Positions 1,961 to 25,608 of a stretch of DNA of 29,499 bases are shown here, piece after piece. Numbering within the stretch: the stretch's first letter is position 1; every line of letters begins with the position of its first letter. The notes beneath the pieces were generated by a model. That model worked only from the letters and a program-made list of their open reading frames with translations. It did no database searches and was not told the DNA's origin. The position numbers and the translations under genes were made by a program. This DNA is from Candidatus Micrarchaeota archaeon (GTDB lineage: Archaea; Micrarchaeota; Micrarchaeia; CABMEP01): NCBI GenBank assembly GCA_964545865.1, contig CAZJHL010000001.1:1-29499 (forward strand). The letters run 5' to 3'.

Positions 1961-1978
1961 AGGATCACCAATCTGAAA

Positions 1979-2485: not shown

Positions 2486-2508
2486 TTCACCACTCTGACA
2501 TAGACTAT

Positions 2509-3372
2509 TCAATCGTAAATCTTTAATGACTTCCTTATTCTTGGAGATGTGAAGCTCCATGATTTCTCGAGAAATCTAATCAGCATTACAAAGATCAGAT
2601 TTAAGAAAATCCCAAATGATACGAATACAAAAACAATAGAAAGAATCGTCAATATTAAAAGAAGAAGGTTAAAAGTGAACTGCAAAGATACAAAGTTCAG
2701 AAGCATAAAGACTATGAGCAACGGAATTACAGGAAATGAGAACAGAACTGAAAAGCTTGCCTTCCAGTCGTCCTCGCTAGGGGTGGATGTAAGTGAGGCC
2801 ACGATCATAAAATATAGGAAGATGACTGAAAATAGTGATGGCGAGGTTAGCAGTGAGAATAGCAGATTAACCAAAGGAAGAACTATAGAAGATATAATTG
2901 AGATGTAAGATTCAAAGCTTAGATCTGGTTTGGCTTCTAACAATTTGTATATCGGTACGTTTACCTGGAATAGAATTATGCTGAAAATGAAAAGAGCTAA
3001 AGAAGGAATGAAAGCAGGCGCAAATGCAGCTATTATTGTTGAAATCCAACCTCCTATCGATTGAGAGGTTCTTGCTGCAATTCTTCCTCCTTTTGAGGTT
3101 ACGAACGATTCTTTCAAATTTATCTCAGAACCAGTGAATAGTGCTGCAAAGAAATGAGACAATTCATGTATGGCGATAGCAAATTCAACAATAAGCCATT
3201 CTGTCAACCTGTATTTATAAAGAGATGGAAATATGAACTTTCTTGTTATGAAAAGCAAGACAACAGACTGTATAAACCAAAAAAGAAGCACACCTATGAA
3301 TATTAGGATTGGTGTAAAGATGTACGGAACTATGTATGAAACAATCCCTGGGTCGGATGGCATTTTGCTCAC
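2509..3372 (-). CDS. Multi-pass membrane zinc metalloprotease, M50/site-2-protease-like
   Basis: IHELSH (HExxH) lies within a hydrophobic segment, there are several transmembrane stretches, and a later PSEDD motif could supply the third metal ligand. Confidence 0.65.
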   Translation of the reverse strand: MSKMPSDPGIVSYIVPYIFTPILIFIGVLLFWFIQSVVLLFITRKFIFPSLYKYRLTEWLIVEFAIAIHELSHFFAALFTGSEINLKESFVTSKGGRIAARTSQSIGGWISTIIAAFAPAFIPSLALFIFSIILFQVNVPIYKLLEAKPDLSFESYISIISSIVLPLVNLLFSLLTSPSLFSVIFLYFMIVASLTSTPSEDDWKASFSVLFSFPVIPLLIVFMLLNFVSLQFTFNLLLLILTILSIVFVFVSFGIFLNLIFVMLIRFLEKSWSFTSPRIRKSLKIYD

Positions 3373-5080: not shown

Positions 5081-5209
5081 TTAATCTGTCTTTACAACTC
5101 TTGCTACTGGTAAAGAAGGTTTGTAAAGAATTCTCCATGCGCAATATGGGCATCTTACAAAGTTTGTGACTTCTTCGATTTCCTTTCCGCAGTTTCCACA
5201 GATGTACAA
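5081..5209 (-). CDS. rpoP: RNA polymerase subunit P (Rpo12)
   Basis: Hand translation from the TTG start 4 nt after GGTGA gives MYICGNCGKEIEEVTNFVRCPYCAWRILYKPSLPVARVVKTD (42 aa): a zinc ribbon plus the RILYK motif, between rpl37ae and Brix. Too short for the ORF track. Confidence 0.93.
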   Translation of the reverse strand: MYICGNCGKEIEEVTNFVRCPYCAWRILYKPSLPVARVVKTD

Positions 5210-5262
5210 TTAATCACCTTTTTAGATCACAATAACCGATTCTAGCAGTCGTTATTTATTGT

Positions 5263-9941: not shown

Positions 9942-10676
9942 TCATCTTACTATAGTGTATTTAGATAGATAAAGATGGGCCTGGAGTACTACTAAGAATG
10001 GAAGAACAACCGCTGAGTTCATCAGTATTATGAACCCCTGCCTCATCATTGGATCTAAGAACATCATGAATGACAATGATGAAAATACGTAGATCATGAT
10101 GAATGCGATCAATAGCCACATTATGAAATTCAATGGCCTTCTGATTACGTGGTTGAAGCTGCTTACTAATGCTGGAACTGGCTTCTTCTCCTCTAGAACC
10201 ACTGCCGGCGCCATGTAGAAAAGACCTAATGAAACAATGAAATCCAACACGAGAGCTGGGAGCTCGTTCATGTTAATTGAAATTAAATAGCTGAGGAATA
10301 AGAATTCAAGCACCTTTATTCCAACGAATATTGCAAATACAGTTAAGGTGTATCTACTTAAATTCCTCATTGCCTCTGCAGACACCTTCGTTCTTGTTCT
10401 TGAAGCCTTGACTACTAGGGTGACTGCAACTGCAGCTAAAGATATAAACAAGAGTGAAATGCCTGCTGAAAGTATGATTGTTATGAAATCTGTCATTGTC
10501 ATTTCTGGAATGCTTCCAGACCTAAGGAAATAACCTCCTAATGCTGTGAAAACTGGCGCAGGCGAGAATGGAGGAAGCAATAAAACTAATGAAAGCAAGA
10601 ATGGGATTGAGAAAAACAATATCATTCCTATATTCTTTGTATAAGTTTCTATCGCATTTTTCAATACATCTATCAT
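9942..10676 (-). CDS. Polytopic membrane protein (about 6 TM), function unknown
   Basis: 244 aa with repeated hydrophobic segments and composition like the core genes. Confidence 0.7.
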   Translation of the reverse strand: MIDVLKNAIETYTKNIGMILFFSIPFLLSLVLLLPPFSPAPVFTALGGYFLRSGSIPEMTMTDFITIILSAGISLLFISLAAVAVTLVVKASRTRTKVSAEAMRNLSRYTLTVFAIFVGIKVLEFLFLSYLISINMNELPALVLDFIVSLGLFYMAPAVVLEEKKPVPALVSSFNHVIRRPLNFIMWLLIAFIMIYVFSSLSFMMFLDPMMRQGFIILMNSAVVLPFLVVLQAHLYLSKYTIVR

Positions 10677-10773: not shown

Positions 10774-12276
10774 TTAGACCTTTCTTGCGCAGCCTGGAAG
10801 ATTGAATATCACAAAATAAGCAGAATTGGTTTGGAGCTTGCTTCCTCTTGTTGCTGCATCGTCATAAGATCTGATCTCAACCTTGTAGACGCCAGGAACA
10901 TAGTTGAATGGAGGGGATGAAGATATTGTTTCATTCAAATTTATGAATACCCCATCTGAATTATTCCACCAAACCATATTTCTTCCGTTCTCACTACTTG
11001 AGCCTGTTGAGCCAGAGATATCTGTTATATTGAATTTTAATCTCCAGATCTTTAAAGTTGTATTAAAATAGTAAATTGATATGTTTGTTTTAACTTCGCT
11101 TATCAAATAATTTACAGGGTCTTCCCTCCATATTCTCGCTGTAACGTTCATTTTTGATGGAATAAATGTAGTACCTTCATTAAAGAATCCCGATGGACTT
11201 GAGTATATCCTTACACTGATCGGATTGATATCACCTATCAAAACGCTTCCCACATTGACACTAGAAACTGAAGCGGAACCGCATGTTCCGACTACTGGGA
11301 CTGTCGAATTAAAGTCAAAGCTTATTGTTGGCGAGACGATAGTTCCTGGTAAGGCATTTGGTGCAGTTACTGTAACTGCAAAATCAACGCTTTGACCGGC
11401 GTTAATTGTTGAAGGCGAGAATGAATTTACAATAAAACCATTTGAAATATAAACGTTTGAAACTGTTGCATTCATATCTCCGCTATTGTTTAGCTTGAAT
11501 CTGAAGGTTACACTGCCCCCTGGAGTTACAGTATAATCGGATTGAACTGGGGTGAGGGTGAGATTTGGACCATTATAAACTGCCAATTTAATTTCTTTCC
11601 TAATTGGACTAAAGGTAGTTGATGTATAAGTTGAATCTTTCATGGGGCCGTCTGTTTCCCAAGTCCTAACAAATATTGAACAGTTTTGAAGAGTTGAAAT
11701 AAAAGATAAACTTTTACTTAAAGGTGGGGTTAATGAATAGGCTATTGAATTATTGAGATCGAATGAATTTAATACTGTCCCATTATCGATTATTGAAAAA
11801 TTACCATAGCAAAACATGCCGTGCTTAAATGATGCATCTCCCTTAGGCTGCCCAGGATTATAATACATACCGGTGCTGTTAAAAATTGCAAATGGATTCG
11901 GTCCGGTCCCATACTGATAATATTGGGTGTTAAAATAATATGAAACGTTGTTCAAGTAATCTGTTTTGTTAACAAGCAAAATTGAGAAAGGTTGGACGTC
12001 ATTTCCAACAGATGGACGTGGACCACAACCAAAAGTAGGGCAGGGAACCATAATATTTTGTAAATTTGAATAATTCCCATTAAAATAGGTTAATGCATCC
12101 AATGTTAGACCTGAACAAACAGCGGTTCCATCACTCAATTCTGTACCTAAAGTTGATATGTTCAATCCTAAACCTACAGATACATCTGAATCTATTCTAC
12201 TTTGCTGTATTCCTATAAATGTAATTGAGAAAGAAAAACTAAACATAATTAAAAGCAATAAGAATGTTTTTTTCAT
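10774..12276 (-). CDS. Secreted/surface glycoprotein with an Ig-like domain
   Basis: Signal peptide MKKTFLLLLIMFSFSFS, about 19 N-x-S/T sequons counted by hand, and an Ig-like segment VTPGGSVTFRFKLNNSG...INAGQSVDFAVTVTAP. Confidence 0.7.
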   Translation of the reverse strand: MKKTFLLLLIMFSFSFSITFIGIQQSRIDSDVSVGLGLNISTLGTELSDGTAVCSGLTLDALTYFNGNYSNLQNIMVPCPTFGCGPRPSVGNDVQPFSILLVNKTDYLNNVSYYFNTQYYQYGTGPNPFAIFNSTGMYYNPGQPKGDASFKHGMFCYGNFSIIDNGTVLNSFDLNNSIAYSLTPPLSKSLSFISTLQNCSIFVRTWETDGPMKDSTYTSTTFSPIRKEIKLAVYNGPNLTLTPVQSDYTVTPGGSVTFRFKLNNSGDMNATVSNVYISNGFIVNSFSPSTINAGQSVDFAVTVTAPNALPGTIVSPTISFDFNSTVPVVGTCGSASVSSVNVGSVLIGDINPISVRIYSSPSGFFNEGTTFIPSKMNVTARIWREDPVNYLISEVKTNISIYYFNTTLKIWRLKFNITDISGSTGSSSENGRNMVWWNNSDGVFINLNETISSSPPFNYVPGVYKVEIRSYDDAATRGSKLQTNSAYFVIFNLPGCARKV

Positions 12277-12317
12277 CAGACATACTTAGCTCTAATAATT
12301 TTTATTCCTTTCTATAA

Positions 12318-15300
12318 TTAAAATCTGATTGAAAGGTGTCCAGTTGGGATATTGTTCTTAAATATATTATTAAAGTCAACTGTGTCTCTTCCAGCTTTTG
12401 GCATTAAGCTCAATCCGACCCCTAATTCTGATTTCTTTCCTTGTATTCTTAATTCTGCACCGAAACCCTTGGGGGATAAAACATCTCCATTAAAGTATTC
12501 CCAAATAGACCAAGCGTAAGTATTTGTTTTTACATTAAGATCTAAGATGTTTCCTAGCTCTTTATTTACTGAAGTTCTAGGTGAACCATCTATAAAATCT
12601 ATATTAAACACAGTTCTCCAATTAATGCTTGCCGGTAATCCATTTATACCTAACCAACTAAATGGAATTGATAAAGGCATTGAAATGTTATTTGTCCTTG
12701 TTTGCATAAGCCATCTGTCATCATACTTAGTTACTGAAATTTCATCAAATAAATTTACTATTTCAACAAGTTTCTTTCCTACTATTTTATTTCCTTCCCA
12801 TTCATGTAAGACGTGTTCACCGAACTTTTGGAAAATCATTTTGTCTTCTTCAGACATTGATTTAATTGTCCAATCCTTATTGCCTCCAAAAAACTCAATC
12901 TTAACTTTTTCTTTTTCATCTACCCTTAAGTGATAACCGATTCCACCTAAAATTTTCTTCTCTTGTTTTGTTCCTTCATCGTATTTAAAGATCGGATTTC
13001 CGTAATTATCGTAGTCTTTGATGGACGCATAAACGTACTTTGTATCATATTGAATCCAACCTGTTTTTATATAAAGATCTTTCTTGATATAAATGTCCAG
13101 TGCGTTAACTGATCTTGTTTGATTCACTTTTAATTGCTTTGGAACGTTAACCAATGAAATTTCCGACCCGAATTGACTTGAAAGAAGATCGCTTGGCATT
13201 TGAGTTTTAAATTTGCCTTCTTTAATCGAATCTTTATTTTCCTCAAGCCATTTCTTTGTTGCATCTCCTCCGACTTTTGCTGGATCTAATTTGTAAGCCT
13301 GATTGATGGCATCGTATATTAATTTATTAACTTCAATTAAATTAAGCGGATTTTGATCGGCATTTTTTTGTAAATTCCATGCTTTATTAATTAAAGATGC
13401 AACACTTTCAGAGAATCTAGATTCGAATCCAGTCGGTACTCCTCCGATTCCACTTCCAGTATTGATACTGTTTTTGATGAAAAATGGGATTGAGATGGGT
13501 AACGATTCTGGAGCTTTGATTTTGATTTCCGCTGTTTCAAATTTAAATGATTTTAAGAATTTAAACGCATTTCCTTTTATTTTGAATATCCCTGAAAGGT
13601 TTAAATCTTCTTGAGAACTGATTTGAGGTAAATCAAATTCAAATCTATTGTTGTTATGAACATTCATTATTGAATTAAACGGCAGACTGTATTTATCATT
13701 TTCACTATAATTCTTGCTAGACTTCCATTTACCCGGTAACCCTGCGAACACCTTGGAACTGAATTTTATGGTTTCAGTATAAAATATTATTTGTGAATTA
13801 TCTTTCTTTCCAGGTTGGACGTCTAGTAATACGTTATCTGGCGGTAAAAACTTTACAATTGCCCTAACTTGATTTCCTTTTTCAATTAATTGAACATTAA
13901 ATCTAATCTGCTGAACTTGACATTCGCCAGAAATTGAATTTATGATTTTATTTGCCAAATCTCTTATCTCATTAGGTTTAGAAGGAAATACTGCCTTACC
14001 AGATAAATAATCATTCAATGGGGTTTGATCCTTTTTGAACTCTAAGCGTACCGCACCTAACTGTGGAACCCCTATGATTTTTTCTTTGCCGTCCTTCATT
14101 ATTTCAAATACCCCTTGAACTAATGAAGACATAAACAGATAATAGTCTGCCTTGTTATCTAAATACTTTTCATTATTCTTGCTTTTCAACATAATTTCAT
14201 TTGATTTGTCAATAATCATTGGTACCATATAATAGAACATCTCTGCAAGTGCTTTCGCTTGGTCTAGCTGGCGCGACATTGCGTCTTCTTTTTGAGAAGT
14301 TGACACTGCCTTTATTAATATATTATATGCTTCATCCATGAATACATACATCATTGCGGGCAATTGTCTAAGTACATCTGGATATTGAGAATATAATGGA
14401 GCGTAATTTACTATTTGTGTACGAATCAAATCGTGGATATATAATTTAATGGCTTCATATTTTATGCCGACTTCTTTATTGGCCATTGTATAGTAATTAA
14501 AACCTGCATCAAAACTACTTGAAATTCTTCCATCGTTAATGATTTTTAATATTTGATTATATACGTCTTTGCTGCTTTTAACACCTGGAACAACATTTCC
14601 ACTCAGGTAACCATCTGGATACAATGCTGCCTTATCGTTGTTTTGGTAAAGAAGAGAATCGCCATCCTTCCACAAGCCGATTTTAACTCTTTTTAACCCC
14701 TGGACCTGTAATTCGGAAAGCTTGCACTTGCCAGTTTGATCAAATAAGGCTTCATACAATTGGCCCGAAAGTAGTTTCTTAGAATCCAAATGGATCCATT
14801 TATCTGTAATAGAAAAACCGAATTCCTTTAAATTTATTGATTCTTTTTTGTCAACTAATTCTTGGATTATTTTAAGATCCTCTTCTCGGCCCTGTATCGT
14901 CATAATAGCTGAAATATTAAGTATAGTTAAATATTGTTGTTGCTCATGTCCGATCGGCCCATAGTTTAGGCTTGAACCTAAGATAGTAGCTAGTTTTTTC
15001 CTTTTTTCATCGGATTCTTCCATATATCTATTTATTTTTTCTACTATGTGTTGTAAATATTTTTTTTGCAGGAAATCTATTTTTACTTGTTCCTCTTTAG
15101 ATGTTTTCGATCGTGCGTAACCATAAAATCCTTTTTCTTTACCGAATGGAATTTCATTAATCACTTTAAATGTATTGCTTTCTTCTTTAGCTCTTAGATA
15201 TTCTAATTTTTTAGACTTAACTTCGCTATATGCCCTTGACCAAAATAAGTTTAGATTCTTTTGTTCTCCTTCTCGCAAAAAATCTTGTTTATTCATGATT

Positions 15301-15476
15301 TCACCTACTCTGTCACCCATCCTCTCATACCTAATTGTATTAAACGTTTGGTTTTTAAATTCTTTTGCTTCGGAAACTGGAATCCCATGGAATAACGGTT
15401 CGATTAATAAAAAAGAAGAGATAAGTAATCTGTTAAGATTTAATCTTCTTGAACGTGTGTTTTCCTTTAAGCGCAT
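12318..15476 (-). CDS. Giant hypothetical protein A (1052 aa): signal-like leader and beta-rich C-terminal domain ending in Phe
   Basis: Long ORF in an AT-rich region. Its N-terminal about 57 aa are homologous to the N-terminus of 19261..22506. Confidence 0.8.
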   Translation of the reverse strand: MRLKENTRSRRLNLNRLLISSFLLIEPLFHGIPVSEAKEFKNQTFNTIRYERMGDRVGEIMNKQDFLREGEQKNLNLFWSRAYSEVKSKKLEYLRAKEESNTFKVINEIPFGKEKGFYGYARSKTSKEEQVKIDFLQKKYLQHIVEKINRYMEESDEKRKKLATILGSSLNYGPIGHEQQQYLTILNISAIMTIQGREEDLKIIQELVDKKESINLKEFGFSITDKWIHLDSKKLLSGQLYEALFDQTGKCKLSELQVQGLKRVKIGLWKDGDSLLYQNNDKAALYPDGYLSGNVVPGVKSSKDVYNQILKIINDGRISSSFDAGFNYYTMANKEVGIKYEAIKLYIHDLIRTQIVNYAPLYSQYPDVLRQLPAMMYVFMDEAYNILIKAVSTSQKEDAMSRQLDQAKALAEMFYYMVPMIIDKSNEIMLKSKNNEKYLDNKADYYLFMSSLVQGVFEIMKDGKEKIIGVPQLGAVRLEFKKDQTPLNDYLSGKAVFPSKPNEIRDLANKIINSISGECQVQQIRFNVQLIEKGNQVRAIVKFLPPDNVLLDVQPGKKDNSQIIFYTETIKFSSKVFAGLPGKWKSSKNYSENDKYSLPFNSIMNVHNNNRFEFDLPQISSQEDLNLSGIFKIKGNAFKFLKSFKFETAEIKIKAPESLPISIPFFIKNSINTGSGIGGVPTGFESRFSESVASLINKAWNLQKNADQNPLNLIEVNKLIYDAINQAYKLDPAKVGGDATKKWLEENKDSIKEGKFKTQMPSDLLSSQFGSEISLVNVPKQLKVNQTRSVNALDIYIKKDLYIKTGWIQYDTKYVYASIKDYDNYGNPIFKYDEGTKQEKKILGGIGYHLRVDEKEKVKIEFFGGNKDWTIKSMSEEDKMIFQKFGEHVLHEWEGNKIVGKKLVEIVNLFDEISVTKYDDRWLMQTRTNNISMPLSIPFSWLGINGLPASINWRTVFNIDFIDGSPRTSVNKELGNILDLNVKTNTYAWSIWEYFNGDVLSPKGFGAELRIQGKKSELGVGLSLMPKAGRDTVDFNNIFKNNIPTGHLSIRF

Positions 15477-15533
15477 ATAAATCTAAGAATAAACCTATTT
15501 CGAATTAAAATACTTTTCGGTGTTGTTTTAGAG

Positions 15534-16730
15534 CTATTTCTCAGCAATGACGTTTAATCCATTGTCCTTAAGTGTCAAATGCAATTTATTTGTTTTGCTT
15601 ATTTCGTATATATACTCAACATCTTTGACTACCCTACTCACCAAAAAATCATAAAGTTTTTTGCTGTTTTTATCATTCAAATCTAAAGTGATGGGTTCAG
15701 AAAAATTAGATGACCAATCCTTACTATTAACTTGACTTATGAGATTTTTCACTTGACTACAATTATTAATCAAACTCTGAAGAAGTGTATTTTCTTTACC
15801 TGTTAATACTAAAGTTTTTGATGCTTCTTTCTGTTTGCCTTTTTCCTTATCTTGTTCCTTTTCTTTTTCTTCTTTCTTCTGTTCTTTTCCTGTCTGAATT
15901 GATTTCTCTTCTTTTTTCTTCTCTTTTGCAGATTCTTTTGATGCAACATACTTCTCAAACGTTTGCCTTATTTCATTTAAGGATTTTTCAAGTCTTTCTA
16001 TCTTCTCTTTATTTTCACCTTTTTCTTTTTCCAATTCCTTCTTCGTCTCTTGATGTAGTTTTATAATTTTTTGCATGGCATTAACATAACGTTCAATTTC
16101 ATCTGTATCTTTTTTACTTGAAGCATACTTTACCAAATCAGGTAAATCTTTCAGTGATTTGAAATCTTCTTTAAATCTAGTCCACCACGTCTCCTTTTTT
16201 GTTTTAGAATCTATTTTTTCTAATGTTTTTTCCATTTCGGAGATTGCATTTGATACTGCTTCAGTTGACTTTTGAATATCTGTAAGTGGAACGGATGAAA
16301 CTTGAATTTCTTGTGATTTTGTTTCTAAAGAAGGTGTTTGGACCTGTTCTTTCTTAATCAATTCTGGCATTTCATCCAGTTTTATCACTCCTTTTTCTTT
16401 ATCTATAATGGGAATAATTAAACCCATCTCTTGTGCTTCTCTTGTTACATTTAAACTGGCTAAATCATCTTCAAATAAGTCAACTTGCGTTTTCTTGAAT
16501 GCAGAAGTGAATATCAGATCGATTTTGATGTGGTCTTCTTCATAAATTTTAATATCTTTAAAAATCGGTTTTTCGCCTTTGTTAATACGAATTATGTCTG
16601 TATTGATTCTTTTAAGAATTATATCTCCTACATCTTGTGGAATCTTATCTTTGCTTATATATTTTTCAATCAATTCTTTTTTTTCATTTAAACTAACTAT
16701 CTCTTTTGGAATGATCTTTTGTCCTGCCAT
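15534..16730 (-). CDS. Hypothetical Lys/Glu-rich coiled-coil protein
   Basis: Long ORF. The likely start is MAGQK at 16730 after GGTGAAGGTGG. It has a low-complexity KE tract. Confidence 0.7.
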   Translation of the reverse strand: MAGQKIIPKEIVSLNEKKELIEKYISKDKIPQDVGDIILKRINTDIIRINKGEKPIFKDIKIYEEDHIKIDLIFTSAFKKTQVDLFEDDLASLNVTREAQEMGLIIPIIDKEKGVIKLDEMPELIKKEQVQTPSLETKSQEIQVSSVPLTDIQKSTEAVSNAISEMEKTLEKIDSKTKKETWWTRFKEDFKSLKDLPDLVKYASSKKDTDEIERYVNAMQKIIKLHQETKKELEKEKGENKEKIERLEKSLNEIRQTFEKYVASKESAKEKKKEEKSIQTGKEQKKEEKEKEQDKEKGKQKEASKTLVLTGKENTLLQSLINNCSQVKNLISQVNSKDWSSNFSEPITLDLNDKNSKKLYDFLVSRVVKDVEYIYEISKTNKLHLTLKDNGLNVIAEK

Positions 16731-16813
16731 CTTGCCACCTTCACCCATAATACCACGATTATATTACGTGTCCCATATTTAAATATATTTGTTTGGTACT
16801 AAAGGTCTATACA

Positions 16814-16827
16814 AAAAAATATATAAA
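16814..16827 (+). promoter_or_regulatory. BRE/TATA-like element AAAAAATATATAAA
   Basis: Lies about 22 nt upstream of the ATG at 16849. An identical 14-mer occurs at 19184-19197. Confidence 0.5.
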
Positions 16828-16848
16828 TAGTGGTGGAGAAATTAAGCT

Positions 16849-17790
16849 ATGCAAGCACAAATTAAAGATGAATACAGTATAATTAAAAAAAGATATATCG
16901 AGATCAATGAAAAATTCAGAAATCAGTCAAAATTGACTTCTACTCAAAAAGAAGAGTTAATAAAAGAAATCTCTGCCTTAAATTCTCAACTTAAAAAGAA
17001 TCCCGAAATAGGTAAGAAACTTGAAGAAGAGATGAAAATTATTCTTTATAACTCAGATGGCACGTATAATGGAAACCGAATCAAGATAATGGCGTATTGG
17101 ATAAGAAGAGAGGAAATGAACAAGGAAATTTTAAAACTTAGAGACGATAATTTGGCAGTAATAGAATTGATTAATGAACCTAAAATGAGAAAACGACTTA
17201 AGAAAACAACCGAATCCATTGAAAACCTTAGAAACGCGGAAATTGAGGAAAATTCAAGCAATACGATGTTAAGAAAGTTTTATCTGGACATAATAGAGAT
17301 ATATGAACAAAGCATAGAAATCGCAAAAGAAAGAAATATTGAATATAAAGGAATGCTCGTTGGAATGGAAGATGCGGAAAAATTCAATAATTTCATGGTT
17401 GGACAGATAGACCTCTCCTTAGCTGGTTTGATGAGTAAAGAGTTTGCGAAAACTATGTATCCTTATATTAGTCTATTTAAAAATAAAAAAGAATATAGCG
17501 AAGAAGAAATTAAATTAATGAATAATTTAAAAAGAGAAATACAAGCAAAAATAGATCAGCTTACAAAGAAACTTGAAAATGTTAAAGAAGTAAAAGAAAG
17601 AAGTCTTACTTTTTTCAAGAAAGTCGCAAGCGGAGATAGAAGCGCAAGTTTAGAAATGGTTCAAGAAGCGGCGGAAAAATGGAAGAAATTTGTTCCGAAT
17701 GCAAAAAAAGTTGAAGAACAAACAAAGATAGAGATAGAAGGTCTCATTCTTGCTTACTCTGCTTTAGATAGGCTACAAAAAACAGTTTAA
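16849..17790 (+). CDS. Hypothetical alpha-helical/coiled-coil protein
   Basis: 313-aa ORF with heptad-like K/E/I/L composition. Its stop abuts the pop5 stop with no gap. Confidence 0.7.
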   Translation: MQAQIKDEYSIIKKRYIEINEKFRNQSKLTSTQKEELIKEISALNSQLKKNPEIGKKLEEEMKIILYNSDGTYNGNRIKIMAYWIRREEMNKEILKLRDDNLAVIELINEPKMRKRLKKTTESIENLRNAEIEENSSNTMLRKFYLDIIEIYEQSIEIAKERNIEYKGMLVGMEDAEKFNNFMVGQIDLSLAGLMSKEFAKTMYPYISLFKNKKEYSEEEIKLMNNLKREIQAKIDQLTKKLENVKEVKERSLTFFKKVASGDRSASLEMVQEAAEKWKKFVPNAKKVEEQTKIEIEGLILAYSALDRLQKTV

Positions 17791-18114
17791 TTATTTGATT
17801 TTCTCCTTAGCCTTTCTTATTGTGCCTGACGTGTAGACTGCCTTAAGGTGAATCTTTTTTCCTTCGTATGAATTTAAAAGAGCCAAAGCAGTCTTTAAAT
17901 CCTCTACGCCTTCATTCAGGCATCTTATGATCGCTTTTTGTCTTAGGTTGTCAAAATAAGCAACGCTTGGCATCACTTTCGAGTAATGAATCTTGCCAAT
18001 CAAATTCAGAAAATCCTTCCTAAGTATGGAAACTAGGTCCTCCTTGGCCAAAGGAACCTCTGAGATGACCTCTATTGCAACGTACCTGTGATTCTCCCTT
18101 AGTGTAGGTTTCAT
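17791..18114 (-). CDS. rnp2: RNase P protein subunit Pop5/Rpp14 (P2)
   Basis: MKPTLRENHRYVAIEV...AIIRC...YTSGTIRKAKEK. Start moved to the ATG at 18114. Confidence 0.93.
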   Translation of the reverse strand: MKPTLRENHRYVAIEVISEVPLAKEDLVSILRKDFLNLIGKIHYSKVMPSVAYFDNLRQKAIIRCLNEGVEDLKTALALLNSYEGKKIHLKAVYTSGTIRKAKEKIK

Positions 18115-18132
18115 GAATCCACCAACCATATT

Positions 18133-18576
18133 TTACAAATGTCTTTTAAGAAGCATGAAGGACTGCCTTATCTGGTCTCTACTCATTCCGCACAGCCGCA
18201 TTATCGATGCAGCTTCATCTATGCTCCTTATAGAATACTTATCCTTTGCAAATGAAGCAACTATGAATTTAAGCTTATAATGCCTTCCTACTCTTATGAA
18301 ATTAGAAATACGATAGATTGCCAGATGGGGATTCTCATTCAAGATATCGGACAGGGAAATAAGGAACGGCTTATTTAGGGATTTCGCCTTGGCAAACATC
18401 TCTAACGAAATCTCGTATTTTGGGCAGTAAAGAATGCCTCCTTTCCTCATATTCTTTATTATCTTATCTGGATCTCCAATCACGAGCTTAGGCTTTATCT
18501 CTGAAAATTGATAGAATTTGACCTGGTCTTTGATGTTTGATTCGCTGTCTAGAGATTCCACTATGTCGAAGTACAT
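18133..18576 (-). CDS. rnp3: RNase P protein subunit Rpp30 (P3), shortened
   Basis: Lies between rpl15e and pop5. The C-terminal IVASFAKDKYSIRS...LCGMSRDQ resembles the Rpp30 end motif. Only 147 aa. Confidence 0.7.
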   Translation of the reverse strand: MYFDIVESLDSESNIKDQVKFYQFSEIKPKLVIGDPDKIIKNMRKGGILYCPKYEISLEMFAKAKSLNKPFLISLSDILNENPHLAIYRISNFIRVGRHYKLKFIVASFAKDKYSIRSIDEAASIMRLCGMSRDQIRQSFMLLKRHL

Positions 18577-18635
18577 GCTATCAAAATAAGTTAAAAGAAA
18601 AAGAATAAAAGATTAGGCTTATCTCTCGTACTAAT

Positions 18636-19118
18636 TTATCTTAAGCCTCTCATCTTCCTTCCTTGAGAAGTCAATCCTCTGAATACTCTTCCTTTCTGTA
18701 GGTTAAGGCCCGTCTTTTCAGGATTTGCGAGTATTACTTCATAGAACTTGTATTGGCCATCATCCCCAACAAAGTATGAGTTAAGGACTTCGAAGTTTCT
18801 GTATTTCTTTCCTGCTCTCTCCTCTGCAATTAGTTGGAGTGATTTGTGTCTTGCATAGAATTGACCTGTCTTTGAAGGCTTTCTTCCTCTCATATGGATG
18901 TATCTCTTTCTCTTTCCTCTCTCTACTCTCACTCTTGCTACCACAAATCCATCCTTTGCTTTATAGCCTAATGTCCTCGCTCTTGCAAGATTAGTAGGCT
19001 TTTCCACTCTAACTACTGGAGATTCCTTTCTCCATTGAGCTATTCTTGCCCTATATGCTGGGGACCTTTCCTTGTATTCTTTTCGGAATGTTTCCTGTAT
19101 CTGCTTATAAAGAGACAT
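18636..19118 (-). CDS. rpl15e: 50S ribosomal protein L15e (eL15)
   Basis: WRKESPVVRVEKPTNLARARTLGYKAKDG, AEERAG, LNSYFVGDDGQYKFYEVIL and FRGLTS. Confidence 0.96.
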   Translation of the reverse strand: MSLYKQIQETFRKEYKERSPAYRARIAQWRKESPVVRVEKPTNLARARTLGYKAKDGFVVARVRVERGKRKRYIHMRGRKPSKTGQFYARHKSLQLIAEERAGKKYRNFEVLNSYFVGDDGQYKFYEVILANPEKTGLNLQKGRVFRGLTSQGRKMRGLR

Positions 19119-19183
19119 AGTATCACTTTAACTAATTTAATAAGTCAAAACTTAAGTTAAGACTGTAAGATATATTAACTTAG

Positions 19184-19197
19184 AAAAAATATATAAA
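19184..19197 (+). promoter_or_regulatory. BRE/TATA-like element AAAAAATATATAAA
   Basis: In the divergent rpl15e / giant protein B intergenic region and identical to 16814-16827. A second TATA-like element, GAAAATATATTAA, follows near 19217-19229. Confidence 0.45.
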
Positions 19198-19260
19198 GCT
19201 TAATCCCTAGATGGCGGAAAATATATTAACCCCTTTTGTGTCTTATTTTTGCTGATTTTT

Positions 19261-22200
19261 ATGCATATGAAGGAGTATTCGCAGTTCTATAAAAGTAATG
19301 AAAAGATCAAAAGGCTTGTTAGAATCACTTTTGCATCCTTTCTTCTAGTCGAACCCCTAATCCTTCCATTGAATGCAAAAGAGGCAGATACAAAAGCATT
19401 TAAAAATCAAATGAATAATAGTATAAAGGTGGAAAGGATGGGTGATAAAGTGGCAACCGCACAAAAACAAAGAAGTCAGTTAGTAGAGGAGGCTAAACGT
19501 GACATATATGGATTAATAAACTCAACTGATAAAGACATGCTCTTAAGAACTTATAATTCAATTAAAGAAAAAAGAGAAAAAAACAAAGAATACAATGATG
19601 CTTACAAAGAAGCATGGATAGAAATCTCAAAAAATAAAAAATATGTAGATACGTTCAATGAAAAATGGCAGAAAGCAGAAAAGGCGTATAAAACACAAAG
19701 TGCTGCAGCGCAAAATCTTATTGAAAGCTTAAGAAAAGTCTTTCCTAATGCACAAACTATAGAGGTTACTATGAGTGGAACGGGTATAACCACTGCGAAA
19801 GAAAAGCAGAGTGCGTTTGATGCTTATTTGAAAGTAACAGATAAAAACGGAAATGCGATTTGGGGTGGGATTAAATTTAAACGTGATAATAATTATGGGA
19901 TTTCTTATGAATATCTTGGCAAAACAGAAGTGACAAAAGAAGGAATAAATGAAATGGAAATTTGGATAAAAGATGGGATTGCAAAATTAAATAAATGGGA
20001 AGACGCGAAAACAAGGTTTGCGCAATTCAGAGGATATTGGCTTGAACCTAATGAAAAAGCATATGTTTTCGTAAGTGGAGAAACGGGCACTTACTCATAT
20101 ACAAAATTCAAAAAGGAATCTGATAATAGCATTACGTTGATAATATCTGGTTCAGCTTCGACTTCAAATATTACATATGAAAAAATGAAAAGGGAGGAGA
20201 CATTTTACAAGTATAGTGGAAAGATCGAATCTACGATACCAGTTATAAATAAAATAAGCGAGATTAATGGAACACTCACTCAAAATCTTGAAATTCTTGG
20301 AGAACGAGAATTAATGCTGACTATTACTCCGAAAGGTGAAAAAACTAGAAATGAATTATACAAGGGAGGCAAAGTTAAAATTGGTGATACATATTTCTCA
20401 GTATCTGCGCCGTTTGTAGAAAAAAACCCAGATATGACTAATCCCCGAATGTACGTATTTGTTTATTATTTAGATGCAAACGGGAATCAAGTTAAATCTG
20501 AAAAAATTGAGGTTGAAAAAGAAATATCTTTATCTTTCTTAGATACATATTTTAATCTAAAAGTTTCACCTTCAAAGAAATCAATAGACAATGCAATCTC
20601 TTCATTATCTGATCAAACATATTATATAATTATAAATGAGACAAAAATACCCATTAATCCTTCAATTAACAAAGCAATTAATTACCAAGATAATAAAAGC
20701 AACTATACAGTTGAATTTAGTAGTGTAAACTTTAGCGGACCAATAATAAATGGAGAAATACAAAATATGACTGGAGATCTCAATATCACTGACAATGCAA
20801 CTGGCATCACGCAAAAACTGAAATTAAATATTGGTGTGCAAACTAATGTAAAATTTGGAAATAATATTCTAGACGTTAAAATAGAACAACCTGAATATAT
20901 ATCTATACTTAACAATGTGCGATATGAAAATATGAGAATTAATTTTAGGACAAACAAAATCGAGAATGACAAAAAAGAAATAGCATACCTTAACAATGCT
21001 TCTTGGGACGGCATAGTTAAATTTAAAGAAAAAGAGTTCAATCTCCAAGCTAAGGCGATTATGCTCTCAGAAGGTCCATTTGCAGAAAAGGAAGAAAAAC
21101 TAAAAGAAAAAGTGCCAAAGAGTAGAAAACAAGAGGAGCTCTTAAATGAAGAAACGGCACAGACGGGCGCAATAGGAACTTTGACTGGCTTATCTGTTCA
21201 AAACTTGATTGGTGTTTCATTCAACGCTACAAATTCAATAGGAAATGGTATTTGGGGTGTCTTATATGACCCAAGACCTTTGATAGAAAAAGGATATAGT
21301 GACAATGGTGATGCACTTAAACAAATAACTGCGAAATTTAAAACAGCTGGATGGAAGAGCCTCGGATTGACTGGTTTAACTGCTTATGAGCAAGAACAGC
21401 TATCAAAAGGAAATATAGGTGTAGAACAAATAAAAGATGTTACAGGTTATGGTCTTTGGTTATTGTTTGACACCTTTGCATTGCATGGTGAAGGAAGAAT
21501 AATTGACGAAAAGATCAAAAAGGAAATAATAAATATGATTGAGACCAAAGGTGACAGAACTGAATTTCTTTTCAGCACTTTCGATCCTAATAGAGAGGGA
21601 TTTCAGATACTTACAATTAAATACAACCAAGAAAGGAAGAAAGGGGAAGAGAATAAAAACTATATTGGCATACAAAAAACAGACTATACTACTTCGACCC
21701 AATATAAAATAAACGATATGAATAGATTAATTAATTCATTGTATGGTAAACTAGATTTAAATAGTATCAAGAGGAGTCAAGATGAAATTATGGTTGGAAA
21801 TCCAACAAGTATAAAGCAACTTACAGAGTTTAGTTATAAGAGATGGAACCCTACAATCGGAATTGGAACCCCGTTTGGTGCTTATGAAGTTGGACTGCAT
21901 TATGCGAATGGTACTGAAATAAAAACTATTGAAAGTTCCGAACTGACAACTAATAGAACTGAGATAAAGGAAATAGGCCAGAATTTAATTTTTAAAGGAA
22001 TTCCGTTATTTGGAATGGAGATTAACGGCACGTACGAAAAAAGAAGAACGGATAGCTTAACTAAAAATAACAATATACTAAATTTATTTTCAACTAACAA
22101 CTATGAAATTATTGAAATTCAGCCATTAGCTAAACTTGGTTTAGATGCATATGCGTATCTTACAGTTCGACAGAGATTGGATTCTTCTGAGATTAACTCT

Positions 22201-22506
22201 TTGGAAAAAGGAGATGTAAAAAGAACAAAAACGATTTCCAAGGAGATAAGACCTGGTTTTAGAAATAAATGGATGGAATTAAATATATTCTACATATTGA
22301 GCGATCAAGAAACATTCAGCAAAACAATTTCTAATTTAGAAAAGATGAAAAACGAGCAGAAACAATGGGGGGTTAACGCGTTTGGAAAAGCCAGCGAAAA
22401 TTTAACGTTCAACCTTTCTTATTACAGGACATGGAATTCACTCGTAGGAACTACATGGGGCATAAATGCTAGAATTGGGTTGAAATTTGACTTAAGTACA
22501 AAATAA
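19261..22506 (+). CDS. Giant hypothetical protein B (about 1081 aa): signal-like leader and beta-rich C-terminal domain
   Basis: Long ORF. Start moved to the ATG at 19261 because MHMKE aligns with MRLKE of protein A. Confidence 0.8.
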   Translation: MHMKEYSQFYKSNEKIKRLVRITFASFLLVEPLILPLNAKEADTKAFKNQMNNSIKVERMGDKVATAQKQRSQLVEEAKRDIYGLINSTDKDMLLRTYNSIKEKREKNKEYNDAYKEAWIEISKNKKYVDTFNEKWQKAEKAYKTQSAAAQNLIESLRKVFPNAQTIEVTMSGTGITTAKEKQSAFDAYLKVTDKNGNAIWGGIKFKRDNNYGISYEYLGKTEVTKEGINEMEIWIKDGIAKLNKWEDAKTRFAQFRGYWLEPNEKAYVFVSGETGTYSYTKFKKESDNSITLIISGSASTSNITYEKMKREETFYKYSGKIESTIPVINKISEINGTLTQNLEILGERELMLTITPKGEKTRNELYKGGKVKIGDTYFSVSAPFVEKNPDMTNPRMYVFVYYLDANGNQVKSEKIEVEKEISLSFLDTYFNLKVSPSKKSIDNAISSLSDQTYYIIINETKIPINPSINKAINYQDNKSNYTVEFSSVNFSGPIINGEIQNMTGDLNITDNATGITQKLKLNIGVQTNVKFGNNILDVKIEQPEYISILNNVRYENMRINFRTNKIENDKKEIAYLNNASWDGIVKFKEKEFNLQAKAIMLSEGPFAEKEEKLKEKVPKSRKQEELLNEETAQTGAIGTLTGLSVQNLIGVSFNATNSIGNGIWGVLYDPRPLIEKGYSDNGDALKQITAKFKTAGWKSLGLTGLTAYEQEQLSKGNIGVEQIKDVTGYGLWLLFDTFALHGEGRIIDEKIKKEIINMIETKGDRTEFLFSTFDPNREGFQILTIKYNQERKKGEENKNYIGIQKTDYTTSTQYKINDMNRLINSLYGKLDLNSIKRSQDEIMVGNPTSIKQLTEFSYKRWNPTIGIGTPFGAYEVGLHYANGTEIKTIESSELTTNRTEIKEIGQNLIFKGIPLFGMEINGTYEKRRTDSLTKNNNILNLFSTNNYEIIEIQPLAKLGLDAYAYLTVRQRLDSSEINSLEKGDVKRTKTISKEIRPGFRNKWMELNIFYILSDQETFSKTISNLEKMKNEQKQWGVNAFGKASENLTFNLSYYRTWNSLVGTTWGINARIGLKFDLSTK

Positions 22507-22561
22507 TCTGAAAGATGAAAAAAGTTATGTTTGATTATTTTTTTTAGTCAAGATATTAGTA

Positions 22562-24229
22562 TTATGCTCTGAGTAATCCATTTGATATTAATTTTTGTAT
22601 AATTTCTTGTTCAGATTTACCTTTCAATTCATCGATGTGTTTTAAAATGGAATTTCCAACTACCTCTAATGAAGCCTCTATCATACCCTCATTATTAACA
22701 ACCTTAAAATAAGTTTCTAAACCTTCTGATTTTATTAATATTCTATTTGGAAGTAATAACTTTACTAATTGTTCTAATTCAGCTACTTGCGAGTTTATCT
22801 CTCTGTTTAAAAGTTTGAAATTTCTTGGTTCCATAGAAGTTTTTTTCTGTTCTCTGTAATTATTGAGAGCACTAATAATATTCTGCGCTGTGATTTTGGT
22901 TTCCTCGGTATATGTAAGTTTCTTTTGCTCTTGTTGGATTGGCTTAACTTCCATCTTTTTATTTTCAATTTGGTTGCTTTCTTTTGACTCCTTTTCTTCT
23001 GATACTTCTTCTATTTTTACCTTCCATTTGGTTGTTCCTTCTATATGTTTTGGATAATCTTGGGTAAATCTATATTTTTTGCCTGTATTTTCAGTGATAT
23101 TATTTATTGTAGATAGAAATTCATCTTTTATCTTATCAAAGGCAGCATAGTTGTATTCTACTTCTTGCCCTTCGACCAATACCTCGATTTTATATTTTGA
23201 CTTTGGATTGTTCTTATTTATGGGTTGGTTGAAGTTTACAATATTATTTCCTGTACCTAATTCTACTTTATTCTTGTAAACAAATCCAAGAGGTCTTTCT
23301 TTATTTTCATTTTCAATATTTTTTTGCTCTAGCTTAACTGCATACCATATTTTTCCATCAGATTTATCTATTCTTTTTGGATATCCATTTGAATATGTAA
23401 ATTGTATATTATAATTTTTGACTGCGTCGTTTATTTTATCCAATAACTCAGCACTTCGTTTCTTATTCGAATTCTTGACGTTCTGGCTCAAATCTGCTTG
23501 AAATTCTACCTCTACTAGTTCATTCACTAATTTTTGTATTTTGTAAGACGACTCGTCCTTTTCATCTGCTTTTTTGTTGAAATTTATACTGTCAACCATA
23601 ATCTGTTGCTTGATAATAAATTCTGATACGTTTGTTTCCTTTTTTTGCTCATCGGCTTTTAATTTTTGTTTTTCACCAATTTCTTCTCTTTGATTATTTT
23701 TATCATCCGTATACTTCTCCTTTAAATCTGATATTTGTTCACCTACATTATCTATTTTTTTCTTTATTGCCTTTAAATTTATGTCGAATACCTGCAAAGA
23801 CGATTTAGGTTTTACATCGCTACTTGGAATTTCAACTTCTTTCCCTATATAAACATAGTCAAAAAAAGCTTTAATGTCATTTTTAGCTTCAAATTGATTC
23901 TTCCAAACTTTAACATACTCATGATCTTCAGGTAGGGCTTCGGCCTTAAATTCGTAACCTAATCTTTCAAAAACAGACTCAAGAATTTTTATTTCTTCTT
24001 CATTAAGAACTAGGATCATGCCTTCCACATTGATATCTGGTTTCTTTTGTTTTTCCAGTATTTCTTCTATTTTATTCTTTGTATCTTTTACATCCAATAT
24101 TTTTGTTTTATTTGGAATAAGATCTATTTGATCTAAGAATTTCTTCACGACCTCTTGTTCTCTTTTTGAAAATTTAGTCTTTTCCTCTTTTTTAATCGAA
24201 ATTTTGGCAACTTGAAACAATATAAACAT
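22562..24229 (-). CDS. Hypothetical charged protein with an internal domain duplication
   Basis: Long ORF. The likely start is the ATG at 24229 after GGGGTGAAGGG. Two related segments YKI..LV...EVE...DKI.D...FT...YPK.I...W..VK.E. Confidence 0.72.
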   Translation of the reverse strand: MFILFQVAKISIKKEEKTKFSKREQEVVKKFLDQIDLIPNKTKILDVKDTKNKIEEILEKQKKPDINVEGMILVLNEEEIKILESVFERLGYEFKAEALPEDHEYVKVWKNQFEAKNDIKAFFDYVYIGKEVEIPSSDVKPKSSLQVFDINLKAIKKKIDNVGEQISDLKEKYTDDKNNQREEIGEKQKLKADEQKKETNVSEFIIKQQIMVDSINFNKKADEKDESSYKIQKLVNELVEVEFQADLSQNVKNSNKKRSAELLDKINDAVKNYNIQFTYSNGYPKRIDKSDGKIWYAVKLEQKNIENENKERPLGFVYKNKVELGTGNNIVNFNQPINKNNPKSKYKIEVLVEGQEVEYNYAAFDKIKDEFLSTINNITENTGKKYRFTQDYPKHIEGTTKWKVKIEEVSEEKESKESNQIENKKMEVKPIQQEQKKLTYTEETKITAQNIISALNNYREQKKTSMEPRNFKLLNREINSQVAELEQLVKLLLPNRILIKSEGLETYFKVVNNEGMIEASLEVVGNSILKHIDELKGKSEQEIIQKLISNGLLRA

Positions 24230-24249
24230 CCCTTCACCCCATATAATCC

Positions 24250-25608
24250 TCATTTAATCTCTATATTAATGCTAGCTGGAGTCAATTGTGATAGTTTAAT
24301 TGCCTGATCAATAACACCCACTTTTTCTTCCATTATTTGTAACCCTTTACCATCAAGATATCTTTCTATTTCACTCTTTATTTTATTCTTTGAATTTGCA
24401 TATAAATTATACCGATCTGGATAAATTACTATCTGAACTACATCATCTTTTTCCACAATATAATAACTCTTACTGTCAATAAATATCTTTCTTCCAGCAG
24501 TATCCTTGTTTATGAATCTTGATTCTCCGAACTCTGGAGGCTTCCATATTATCTGTGGTATATCTTGAAGATTCCAGTCAAAATTTATTGAATCGAATGA
24601 GACATAGTAGCCGTTCTCGTCAAGCCAGACCTCGTTTCCATACTGGTCCTTTGAGAGGATTGCCCATTCGCCGTTTCTCATCCTTAGCTTTGTTCCAATC
24701 TCGATTTTTTCAAGCTCTAATTCTCCGGTCTTTAGTAATAGACCTATATCTTTCTTCCTAATCTCTGCATCCGTGCCTGTGATGTATCCACCTTTTCTCT
24801 TTAATGCGTAGAATGACCCTTCTCCTACGAAAAGACAGCCTGCTGTAGTTTGATTGTAAAGGTCGTCCAGTATTCCTGCCTCGCTCCCGAGAGGCGCTTC
24901 CCCTATGAAGCCAGGGTATATGTAGGAACGGAAATGCAGTTTTTCAGTGCCTTTAAATGGGATTTTAGCTGAACCCATCAGATTGAAAATGCTCCAAGGA
25001 TGCGGAGAAGTTGAAGATGAAAAGGAATTTGGATATACTTGTCTCAGTTCTGAAAAGCCTTTCCTTCCGGGAGGTATGACCCAGCCTCCTTTTTCTAATT
25101 TTCCTAATTCAAATGTACCAGTCCTTAATGGAATAGAAATAGAAGCTCCCGAAAGGATAGTCGCGTCCTCTACTTCGCCATTGTTTACTTTTGCCAAAAT
25201 CCCAATATTCGGATTCGCATAAAGCTCATATCCTTTTCCAGTCAGTTTTTTATCCTTTATTGCATCGTCCACGAAACTTTGAAGTATATCTTTAGGTGGT
25301 GAAAAGTAGTTTATCTCTCTCGCATAGCTCTTCCCCACATAAAGCATTGGTTTTTTGTTCTCTTCTCCTATCCTGAAAACAATCTGATAGCCGTTATTTC
25401 TGATGAAATCGTAGATTTCATTTATGAGTTTCTTCTTAAAATCATCGTTTGTTATATTTATCGGTATTTTGAAAAATGAACCCTTAGCCTCCTTCAGGTC
25501 TTCGATAGAAAATTTCATCACTTCTTTCTCTGCTATTTCTTTTATTTTTTCTAGTATTTCATCGATTTCCTTTTTTTCGTTCTGAACTTCTTTTAATATA
25601 GGTGGCAT
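24250..25608 (-). CDS. Hypothetical protein, possible L,D-transpeptidase-like (YkuD/DUF5675/Tlde1-type) catalytic domain
   Basis: 452-aa ORF with the motifs IPLRTGTF, LHF and TTAGCLFVG in order. The family call is tentative. Confidence 0.45.
   Translation of the reverse strand: MPPILKEVQNEKKEIDEILEKIKEIAEKEVMKFSIEDLKEAKGSFFKIPINITNDDFKKKLINEIYDFIRNNGYQIVFRIGEENKKPMLYVGKSYAREINYFSPPKDILQSFVDDAIKDKKLTGKGYELYANPNIGILAKVNNGEVEDATILSGASISIPLRTGTFELGKLEKGGWVIPPGRKGFSELRQVYPNSFSSSTSPHPWSIFNLMGSAKIPFKGTEKLHFRSYIYPGFIGEAPLGSEAGILDDLYNQTTAGCLFVGEGSFYALKRKGGYITGTDAEIRKKDIGLLLKTGELELEKIEIGTKLRMRNGEWAILSKDQYGNEVWLDENGYYVSFDSINFDWNLQDIPQIIWKPPEFGESRFINKDTAGRKIFIDSKSYYIVEKDDVVQIVIYPDRYNLYANSKNKIKSEIERYLDGKGLQIMEEKVGVIDQAIKLSQLTPASINIEIK

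Follow-up and report, generated by a model that had tools for sequence, protein, structure and literature searches.

A giant micrarchaeal orphan protein with a shared leader and a β-rich C-terminal domain that ends like a bacterial outer-membrane protein

The stretch of DNA analysed here (the window; 29,499 nucleotides, positions 1 to 29,499 of contig CAZJHL010000001.1, GenBank assembly GCA_964545865.1, from a Candidatus Micrarchaeota archaeon) encodes a protein of 1052 amino acids, hereafter giant protein A. Protein A is tentatively read as a Sec-exported, lineage-specific envelope or host-contact protein of thermophilic Micrarchaeia and not as an Omp85-type substrate. An earlier note on this DNA had proposed that its last 280 residues or so form an integral barrel of the outer-membrane type; for this the evidence leans negative, and such a barrel appears rather doubtful. 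With this locus, a small family of ~120 kDa proteins comes to light that had not been described before. DPANN archaea need physical contact with a host, and almost no proteins that build this contact are known. The gene of protein A was translated without an internal stop, and it was divided as follows (positions in the window).

12318..15476, minus strand: gene of giant protein A, 1052 aa, 120.7 kDa, pI 9.1, 6 N-glycosylation sequons (open reading frame, translation and composition)
15366..15476, minus strand: residues 1-37, putative Sec-type signal peptide (alignment of 12 leaders; cleavage inferred)
15312..15365, minus strand: residues 38-55, shared mature N-terminal motif K-E-F-K-N-Q-x-x-N-x-I-x-x-E-x-M-G-D
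14082..15179, minus strand: residues 100-465, helical (full-length AlphaFold2 model; 100-260 at a predicted local distance difference test score, pLDDT, of 84-94, 340-430 at ~70)
13512..14081, minus strand: residues 466-655, central β-region (AlphaFold2 strands at pLDDT 55-70)
13146..13511, minus strand: residues 656-777, Gly-rich loop with a helical module behind it, showing the strongest conservation in the protein (alignment, AlphaFold2)
12321..13145, minus strand: residues 778-1052, C-terminal β-rich domain with 15-17 strands and a helical hairpin (AlphaFold2, alignment of C-termini, Foldseek)
12321..12353, minus strand: residues 1042-1052 (NIPTGHLSIRF), last strand with a β-signal-like end (predicted strand, pLDDT 64-81)

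The full-length AlphaFold2 model was built from five sequences and reached a mean pLDDT of 56.9. Residues 1-99 were disordered (<40), and the C-terminal 275 residues stayed below 50. About half of the protein was predicted to be α-helical, and the large helical N-terminal part described in the earlier note was recovered with good confidence over residues 100-260. The central region at 466-655 probably consists of Ig- or fn3-like sandwiches; its Foldseek matches were weak, namely, cytokine-receptor fn3 and nanobody folds with E-values of 0.07-0.9. Invariant columns were densest across residues 655-790, where the helices at 684-772 were modelled at pLDDT 78-92. The loop in front of them, PESLPISIPFF..N.GSGIGGVPTGF (residues 656-682; window 13430-13511, minus strand), is hydrophobic and Gly-rich, was mostly modelled below pLDDT 50 and had no match in any of the collections searched. 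It may be a functional site, e.g. a loop for membrane contact or binding. When the full-length model was compared with the Protein Data Bank (PDB) by Foldseek, no significant match was returned.

Relatives of protein A are few. Four were found by a word-indexed search of 5.8 billion proteins, and an exhaustive profile search of 1.84 billion cluster representatives gave eight matches, several of them through the leader only. The orthologues are 39-84% identical, the closest (83-84%) coming from a hot-spring metagenome-assembled genome, Candidatus Micrarchaeia archaeon DRTY-6. The GTDB species genomes and the JGI metagenomes each contributed one locus. No relative was present among the viral contigs of IMG/VR, so a viral origin is unlikely. 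A bacterial homologue was not found among the 1.84 billion representatives either, and searches of Pfam, NCBIfam and PDB sequences yielded nothing meaningful for protein A. Judged by its sequences, the family is a new, lineage-restricted orphan without detectable relatives among described families.

The N-terminus is the part that links protein A to other giants, the nearest of which is encoded in the same window.

19249..22506, plus strand: giant protein B, 1085 aa, with a leader as in A, an unrelated body and a β-rich C-terminus ending in ...WGINARIGLKF-DLSTK

Proteins A and B are similar in ~70 N-terminal residues only (BLASTP E 2e-9; window 15312-15476, minus strand, and 19249-19450, plus strand). 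Homology of their C-termini was rejected at an hhalign probability below 1%. In an alignment of 12 leaders, a basic n-region leads into a hydrophobic core (SSFLLVEPL), after which come small residues and the motif K-x-F-K-N-Q-x-x-N-x-I...M-G, with K38, K41, I48 and M53 invariant in all 12. In protein A, the putative signal peptide (residues 1-37) has its h-region, LLISSFLLIEPLF with a conserved Glu-Pro/Ser, after the basic n-region and is predicted to be cleaved after SEA. Its best Kyte-Doolittle window of 19 residues scored 1.56, with the conserved Glu lying in the core. In the most distant relatives (locus L004) textbook signal peptides with the sites AWA↓R and ANA↓R are found just ahead of the motif. 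The leader is also common to the giants P0003 and P0009, and to P0005/P0010, P0013 and P0014; where gene calls of orthologues were truncated, it was present in frame upstream. The paralogues of A and B in the syntenic locus L001 are otherwise unrelated genes, yet they share 98% identity over the 53 nt that encode GKVFKKQTSNSIKVDGMG (about 9950-10010 and about 5190-5245); gene conversion or a recognition partner common to both may account for this. The leader is consistent with a Sec signal peptide followed by a shared mature N-terminal motif that may serve docking or assembly. Two other types of leader were considered and rejected. A twin-arginine leader (SRRLNL) does not apply as the RR pair is not conserved in the homologues, and a class III (pilin-type) signal does not as the conserved motif stands after the hydrophobic core and not before it.

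The C-terminal domain was studied with an alignment of residues 761-1052 and seven homologous C-termini, the distant P0011 and P0012 included. All peptides from which a run of strands had been proposed in the earlier note were found in the translation, namely, ALDIYIK (791-797), LYIKTGW (801-807), LGGIGYHLRV (843-852), VKIEFFGG (858-865), ASINWRTVFNIDF (949-961), LDLNVKT (978-984), GFGAELRIQG (1004-1013), ELGVGLSL (1017-1024) and GHLSIRF (1046-1052). AlphaFold2 on these eight sequences gave a mean pLDDT of 61.6 and a predicted template modelling (TM) score of 0.38, with blocks of 70-83 at about 790-870 and 970-1050 and values below 50 for residues 888-947. Strands were predicted at 781-796, 801-822, 828-852, 856-865 and 868-875, followed by 11 short ones between 912 and 1051. 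Between them lie helices 880-892 and 897-907, which belong to a conserved helical hairpin (about 876-909) with an invariant W-E-G. From about residue 816 on, this run and the full-length run agreed on the positions of secondary structure. The domain is thus modelled as an antiparallel β-meander. Most of its strands show a hydrophobic/polar alternation that is conserved across the eight homologues, with only 3-4 hydrophobic positions per strand, and Gly residues lie on the polar faces. Charged residues abound in the long hairpins at 801-852. The strands in 912-1051 comprise 3-10 residues each, or ~12 residues per strand and loop, compared with ~18-22 in OmpX, OmpA, OMPLA and OmpF. For an unbroken outward hydrophobic belt ~24 Å high, flanked by aromatic girdles, a membrane barrel would need strands of at least 9-10 residues.

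Foldseek placed this model next to bacterial barrels. The top 47 PDB matches were all outer-membrane barrels, namely, OMPLA, PelB, FadL, TonB-dependent transporters, a BAM substrate, porins, FapF and OmpG, and ranks 48 and 50 were the β-pore toxin assemblies OlyA/PlyB and perforin-2. In a viral structure library, entries resembling outer-membrane proteins (OMPs) surfaced as well (DUF481, OmpC, SusC and autotransporter β-domains). The best match, OMPLA, had a probability of 0.98 and an E-value of 4.9e-3, and none fell below 1e-3. Superposition on the barrels gave TM-scores of 0.13-0.26 and root-mean-square deviations of 15-26 Å over the full length, so what matches is a local hairpin meander and does not amount to a global barrel fit. 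What remains of the proposed integral barrel is the antiparallel meander, the β-signal-like last strand and the barrels among the structural neighbours, while a closed barrel with a hydrophobic belt is more than the low-confidence model can show. Profile searches were negative: no OMP family was detected by Pfam in the eight homologues even at E-values up to 10, by NCBIfam or by phmmer and hmmsearch against PDB, and hhalign of the domain against 15 E. coli OMPs stayed below 1% probability. Neither the 12-strand autotransporter β-domain (PF03797) nor any family of the type V secretion system was matched in protein A by Pfam. The Pfam hits to SH3_15 (E 0.024-0.066) and fn3_3 (E 0.033) were far below the cut-offs and were disregarded.

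Protein A indeed ends in GHLSIRF, as had been noted, with Phe as the last residue, Ile at -3 and Leu at -5. The closing aromatic residue (F or W) was kept in 8/8 homologues, down to 18% identity, with strand ends such as TYKF-G, TFYF-G, TWTF-G and ISW-G. It is not always the last residue, given that P0005, P0010 and P0012 add Gly and a Lys-rich tail of 9-14 residues. As the E. coli β-signal of OmpA is itself internal and followed by Gly (GVSYRF-G), these tails do not refute the idea of a β-signal. The pattern of the last strand also fits the E. coli signals GIVYQF and GVGYRF. In P0011 (residues about 226-373), ~145 residues follow the aromatic residue, first a Lys/Pro-rich linker and then an extra domain, a layout that resembles the barrel, linker and periplasmic domain of OmpA. 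Non-homologous giants end alike, with KITFGYSF, MIPFLF-KKSKK and FFGLW, and giant B with IGLKF-DLSTK.

The sequence arguments were calibrated with 16 OMPs, 19 soluble secreted β proteins and 89 other proteins of E. coli K-12. The last 285 residues of protein A showed a modest excess of period-2 amphipathicity over composition-matched shuffles (z 2.3), and contained 11 windows of the type H-P-H-P-H compared to 5.8 in shuffles (p 0.05). E. coli OMP barrels ranged from 0.6 to 3.1 and fimbrial subunits and chaperones from -0.6 to 2.6. Since these ranges overlap, OMPs cannot be told from soluble β proteins by their amphipathic strands. A crude count of transmembrane β-segments had medians of 7.5 for OMPs, 4 for soluble β proteins and 3 for the others, with 3-7 in A-type proteins, and was dismissed as uninformative because of the overlapping distributions. 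The terminal motif performed better. Hy-x-Hy-x-[FWY]-COOH (Hy, hydrophobic) occurred in 3/65 open reading frames of four archaeal loci, all three being leader-bearing giants, and in 5/120 of E. coli, four of them OMPs, with 1 of about 115 non-OMPs carrying it; relative to other proteins, it was ~50-fold enriched in E. coli OMPs. Of the two signals, the terminal motif is the stronger and more informative. Amphipathic strands and a terminal Phe, taken from sequence alone, are too little to call a protein an OMP.

The gene of protein A is embedded in a conserved neighbourhood.

10774..12276, minus strand: p500, with a classical signal peptide, a CARDB/DUF1573/fn3-like Ig domain and 19 sequons (Pfam, composition), 41 nt after A
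9942..10676, minus strand: p244, multi-pass membrane protein downstream of p500; a 242-aa gene stands at the same position in L001
15534..16748, minus strand: p404, Lys/Glu-rich, without a signal peptide, directly upstream of A with a 57-nt gap
16849..17790, plus strand: p313, conserved Lys/Glu-rich neighbour, 56% identical in L001

The order p404-A-p500-p244 is operon-like with gaps of 41-97 nt. The longer order B / L15e-Rpp30-Rpp14 / p313 / p404 / A / p500 / p244 recurs in L001 at ~45% protein identity and is partly kept in L002 and in the distant L004 and L005. A giant with a p500 homologue directly downstream was found in L001, L002, L003, L005 and L006. At the position of p404, weak relatives are present in L001 and L006 and a 408-aa open reading frame in L002. 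No family match was obtained for p244. Protein p500 carries 3.8 sequons per 100 residues and seven Cys; with its signal peptide and Ig-like domain it is clearly extracellular. It lacks a C-terminal hydrophobic helix. One of its Cys residues is conserved five residues from the C-terminus, and p500 and its homologues end in a hydrophobic stretch, this Cys and four residues (FVIFNLPGCARKV, FVIFNASSCVQRI, FVIFNASSCVKRI, VYSLSCEDRA), which could be a modification or anchoring signal. Downstream of the distant A-like giant in L004, a gene of more than 2,680 aa (15325-23390, plus strand) combines a signal peptide, many sequons and weak TSP_3 matches, so that a much larger surface protein is encoded in the same neighbourhood.

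Comparison of L003 (1-3326) with L006 (1-5413) revealed how variable the giants are. The DNA is 94.5% identical from the middle of the p500 homologue onward, with PolX at 95%. Upstream of this breakpoint, L003 encodes an A-type giant and L006 encodes P0014, and the N-terminal halves of the p500 homologues diverge too. P0014 matched protein A in the leader region only by BLASTP, and the profile search reached about 250 N-terminal positions. The giant and the N-terminal half of p500 are swapped as a cassette between near-identical strains. Such replacement points to diversifying selection, which is typical of exposed proteins in contact with hosts or viruses.

From these features we infer the following course of events for an exported protein A. 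The signal peptide (residues 1-37) would carry the protein across the cytoplasmic membrane and would be cleaved after SEA. The motif K-x-F-K-N-Q-x-x-N-x-I...M-G, common to the giants of one genome, would then be exposed and could dock each of them on one envelope receptor or assembly site. The body would be built from the extended helical part, the Ig-like centre and the conserved module of Gly-rich loop and helices. The C-terminal meander of ~275 residues, closed by the aromatic-ended strand, would be an assembly or contact module and no classical monomeric transmembrane barrel; it may bind p500, the surface layer (S-layer) or a membrane surface, either the archaeon's own or that of the host. 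Cassette replacement of the giant and of the N-terminal half of p500 would reflect diversifying selection on this surface.

Several observations weigh against this explanation. The sequon density of protein A (0.57 per 100 residues) is cytoplasm-like and, together with its pI of 9.1, sets it apart from glycoproteins such as p500. The conserved Glu and the weak hydrophobicity of the h-region make export less than certain. The Foldseek neighbours of the C-terminal model are nearly all membrane barrels, and the terminal motif is rare in non-OMPs yet recurs in non-homologous giants, for which a non-membrane role offers no explanation.

An alternative close to the proposal of the earlier note is that residues about 778-1052 form a true membrane β-barrel or β-pore, single or oligomeric, that would insert without Omp85. 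It could be targeted to an outer lipid layer of the archaeon, to its own membrane from outside or, as a self-inserting pore-forming module, to the membrane of the host. The N-terminal ~750 residues would then be a passenger or a periplasm-like part in an architecture analogous to that of an autotransporter. The run of 47 barrels followed by β-pore toxins, the OMPLA probability and the OMP-like entries of the viral library favour this, as do the mirroring of E. coli β-signals by xGHLSIRF and the homologous ends, the enrichment of the motif in OMPs and its confinement to giants in the archaeal loci, the aromatic-type ending shared by non-homologous giants, the Gly residues on polar faces and the Lys-rich tails after the last strand. 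With ~16 strands in ~270 residues, the meander is like Omp85/BAM barrels (OMPLA/PldA, OmpA, OmpX, porins, FadL), and its last strand follows Hy-x-Hy-x-Phe with Arg/Lys at -2 as in YRF and YQF; some homologues add Gly and a tail after it like OmpA. However, it differs from these barrels in lacking homology by sequence or profile and any global superposition (TM ≤0.26), in its shorter strands and in the conserved helical hairpin in mid-domain. The poor fit to many solved barrels, the low pLDDT, below 50 at 888-947, the short strands with few conserved alternate hydrophobics, the charged hairpins and a segment count of 3-7 speak against membrane insertion, as does the lack of a bacterial homologue. 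POTRA and Bac_surface_Ag domains or other OMP and Omp85 families were not found in the 18 larger open reading frames of the window that were scanned. Archaea have no recognised Omp85. The host of protein A is an archaeon whose cultivated relatives lack an outer membrane. Altogether, insertion as a barrel or pore is possible but doubtful.

The premise of a second membrane, which the earlier note had offered as one of two destinations for its barrel, is weak. An inner and an outer membrane had at one time been postulated for Micrarchaeota and Altiarchaeota, and two membranes for ARMAN from older electron cryo-microscopy (cited in 10.1101/2021.04.28.441871). By contrast, cultivated Micrarchaeota show an S-layer over a single membrane (10.1101/2021.04.28.441871; PMC11329633). 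In Ca. Micrarchaeum harzensis it is made of a 101-kDa glycoprotein (10.1101/2021.04.28.441871). Below the S-layer of Microcaldus ARM-1, electron cryo-tomography shows a 21-nm barrel-shaped complex of unknown composition, at which host nanotubes are docked (PMC11329633). It is unlikely, though conceivable, that the leader-bearing giants of thermophilic Micrarchaeia are the first archaeal proteins with Omp85-independent membrane β-barrel or β-pore domains. Their aromatic-ended C-termini would then enter a lipid layer, singly or as oligomers, and could form a pore for exchange with the host or a docking structure. Such a role would be comparable to that of the ARM-1 complex by analogy only, given that protein A has no homologue beyond a few metagenomic relatives; a homology link to the complex was not supported by the eight family members of the exhaustive search, none of which bears a species name that ties it to ARM-1. 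With regard to architecture only, protein A is also like the proteins of type V secretion (autotransporters, and two-partner secretion proteins with an extended signal peptide region) in having at least 1000 residues, an unusually long family-conserved leader, a passenger-like body and a C-terminal β-domain. Unlike them, its body is helical and Ig-like without a β-helix, its host is an archaeon, and the conserved part of the leader follows the hydrophobic core and does not precede it.

Protein A (or B) could also be the large lattice subunit of an S-layer and p500 its small partner, similar to slaA-slaB of the Sulfolobales, with the C-terminal domain providing lattice contacts. Genes for a large and a small exported protein are adjacent and co-oriented, as in slaA-slaB, and this arrangement is kept in five related loci. 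The ~120 kDa of protein A lie inside the range of 40-200 kDa for S-layer proteins and in a size class similar to that of the M. harzensis protein (10.1101/2021.04.28.441871). The partner p500 is Ig-like and sequon-rich, the pair is lineage-specific and fast-evolving, and variability of the cassette type would suit an exposed lattice. On the other hand, protein A is basic (pI 9.1 compared to the usual 4-6), sequon-poor with only six sites and about half helical, where a large S-layer subunit would be expected to be dense in sequons and built mainly of β-sandwiches. No similarity to S-layer families was detected in Pfam or NCBIfam, nor any homology to slaA-slaB or the M. harzensis protein, and p500 has neither the C-terminal transmembrane helix nor the coiled-coil stalk of a SlaB-like anchor. 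Several paralogous giants per genome share one leader, which is unusual for a single lattice protein. An S-layer pair is quite improbable. Slightly less credence is given to a protein A that is not exported at all and in which the hydrophobic stretch is an uncleaved anchor or a cytoplasmic helix, so that A would be an intracellular or membrane-peripheral scaffold acting with p404 and p313. Its sequon density and Lys/Glu content are like those of cytoplasmic proteins, the h-region has its conserved Glu and modest hydrophobicity, and the neighbours p404, p313, p563 and p452 lack signal peptides. Yet in the distant relatives the homologous position is taken by canonical signal peptides that can be cleaved at an A-x-A site, the gene stands in tight linkage with that of the extracellular p500, and hypervariability of the cassette type would be unexpected for a housekeeping scaffold. 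On balance, an intracellular protein A is quite improbable as well.

The exported envelope or host-contact protein favoured here may also be compared with the SPEARE proteins of Nanohaloarchaeum antarcticus, an example of the giant, lineage-specific surface proteins of DPANN archaea. Like them, protein A is a large orphan in the reduced genome of a symbiont, with a presumed role in host contact. Unlike them, the micrarchaeal giants are much smaller (about 1000-1200 aa), lack recognisable adhesin, protease or lectin domains and are defined by the shared leader and a β-rich, aromatic-terminated C-terminus. Three traits characterise the family: unrelated bodies carry one leader and mature N-terminal motif, which is homogenised inside a genome; near-identical strains swap entire giants along with half of the adjacent glycoprotein gene; and the β-rich C-termini imitate the sorting signal of bacterial outer-membrane proteins. 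Should the C-terminal domain turn out to be a membrane barrel, archaea would have their first transmembrane β-barrel, and the nature of the outer layer of Micrarchaeota would again be in question. If it were soluble, the family would still be a concrete candidate for the host-recognition apparatus of the symbiont.

The DNA of the window is archaeal. It encodes exosome Rrp4, SBDS and Rpp14, with a weak Pfam match for Rpp30, and a tRNA that presumably contains an intron, and archaeal genes are also found in the syntenic L001, where Rrp41/42-type RNase PH, proteasome alpha and ribosomal protein L15e are encoded. In NCBI taxonomy, Micrarchaeia belong to the phylum Microcaldota in the kingdom Nanobdellati (= DPANN). 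The remaining features of the window are as follows.

671-2560, minus strand: genes of the large and small subunits of a [NiFe] hydrogenase (NiFeSe_Hases, Oxidored_q6; Pfam) in a DPANN genome
22562-25608, minus strand: two orphan genes of 452 aa and 563 aa with a 4-nt overlap (ATGA), without family match
25669-27003, minus strand: transglutaminase-core protein with an N-terminal carboxypeptidase-regulatory-like domain and 12 sequons (Pfam, composition)
27026-27173, plus strand: tRNA, a 148-nt Rfam match missed by ARAGORN, presumably intron-containing
28649-28720, plus strand: tRNA-Ala(GGC), overlapping the first codons of the mechanical open reading frame 28663-29271

The GC content is 29-34% in window 12000-25600, the block of the giants and the Lys/Glu-rich orphans p404, p313, p563 and p452, compared to 38-46% in the flanking housekeeping genes and 39% in the embedded L15e and RNase P genes. 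Of the two overlapping orphans, the 563-aa protein is rich in Lys and Glu and has a weak relative beside giant B in L001. The transglutaminase-core protein is exported and constitutes a further envelope protein close to the giants. A hydrogenase small subunit is encoded at the same end of the syntenic block in L001 as well. Due to its overlap with tRNA-Ala(GGC), the true start of the open reading frame 28663-29271 must lie further downstream.

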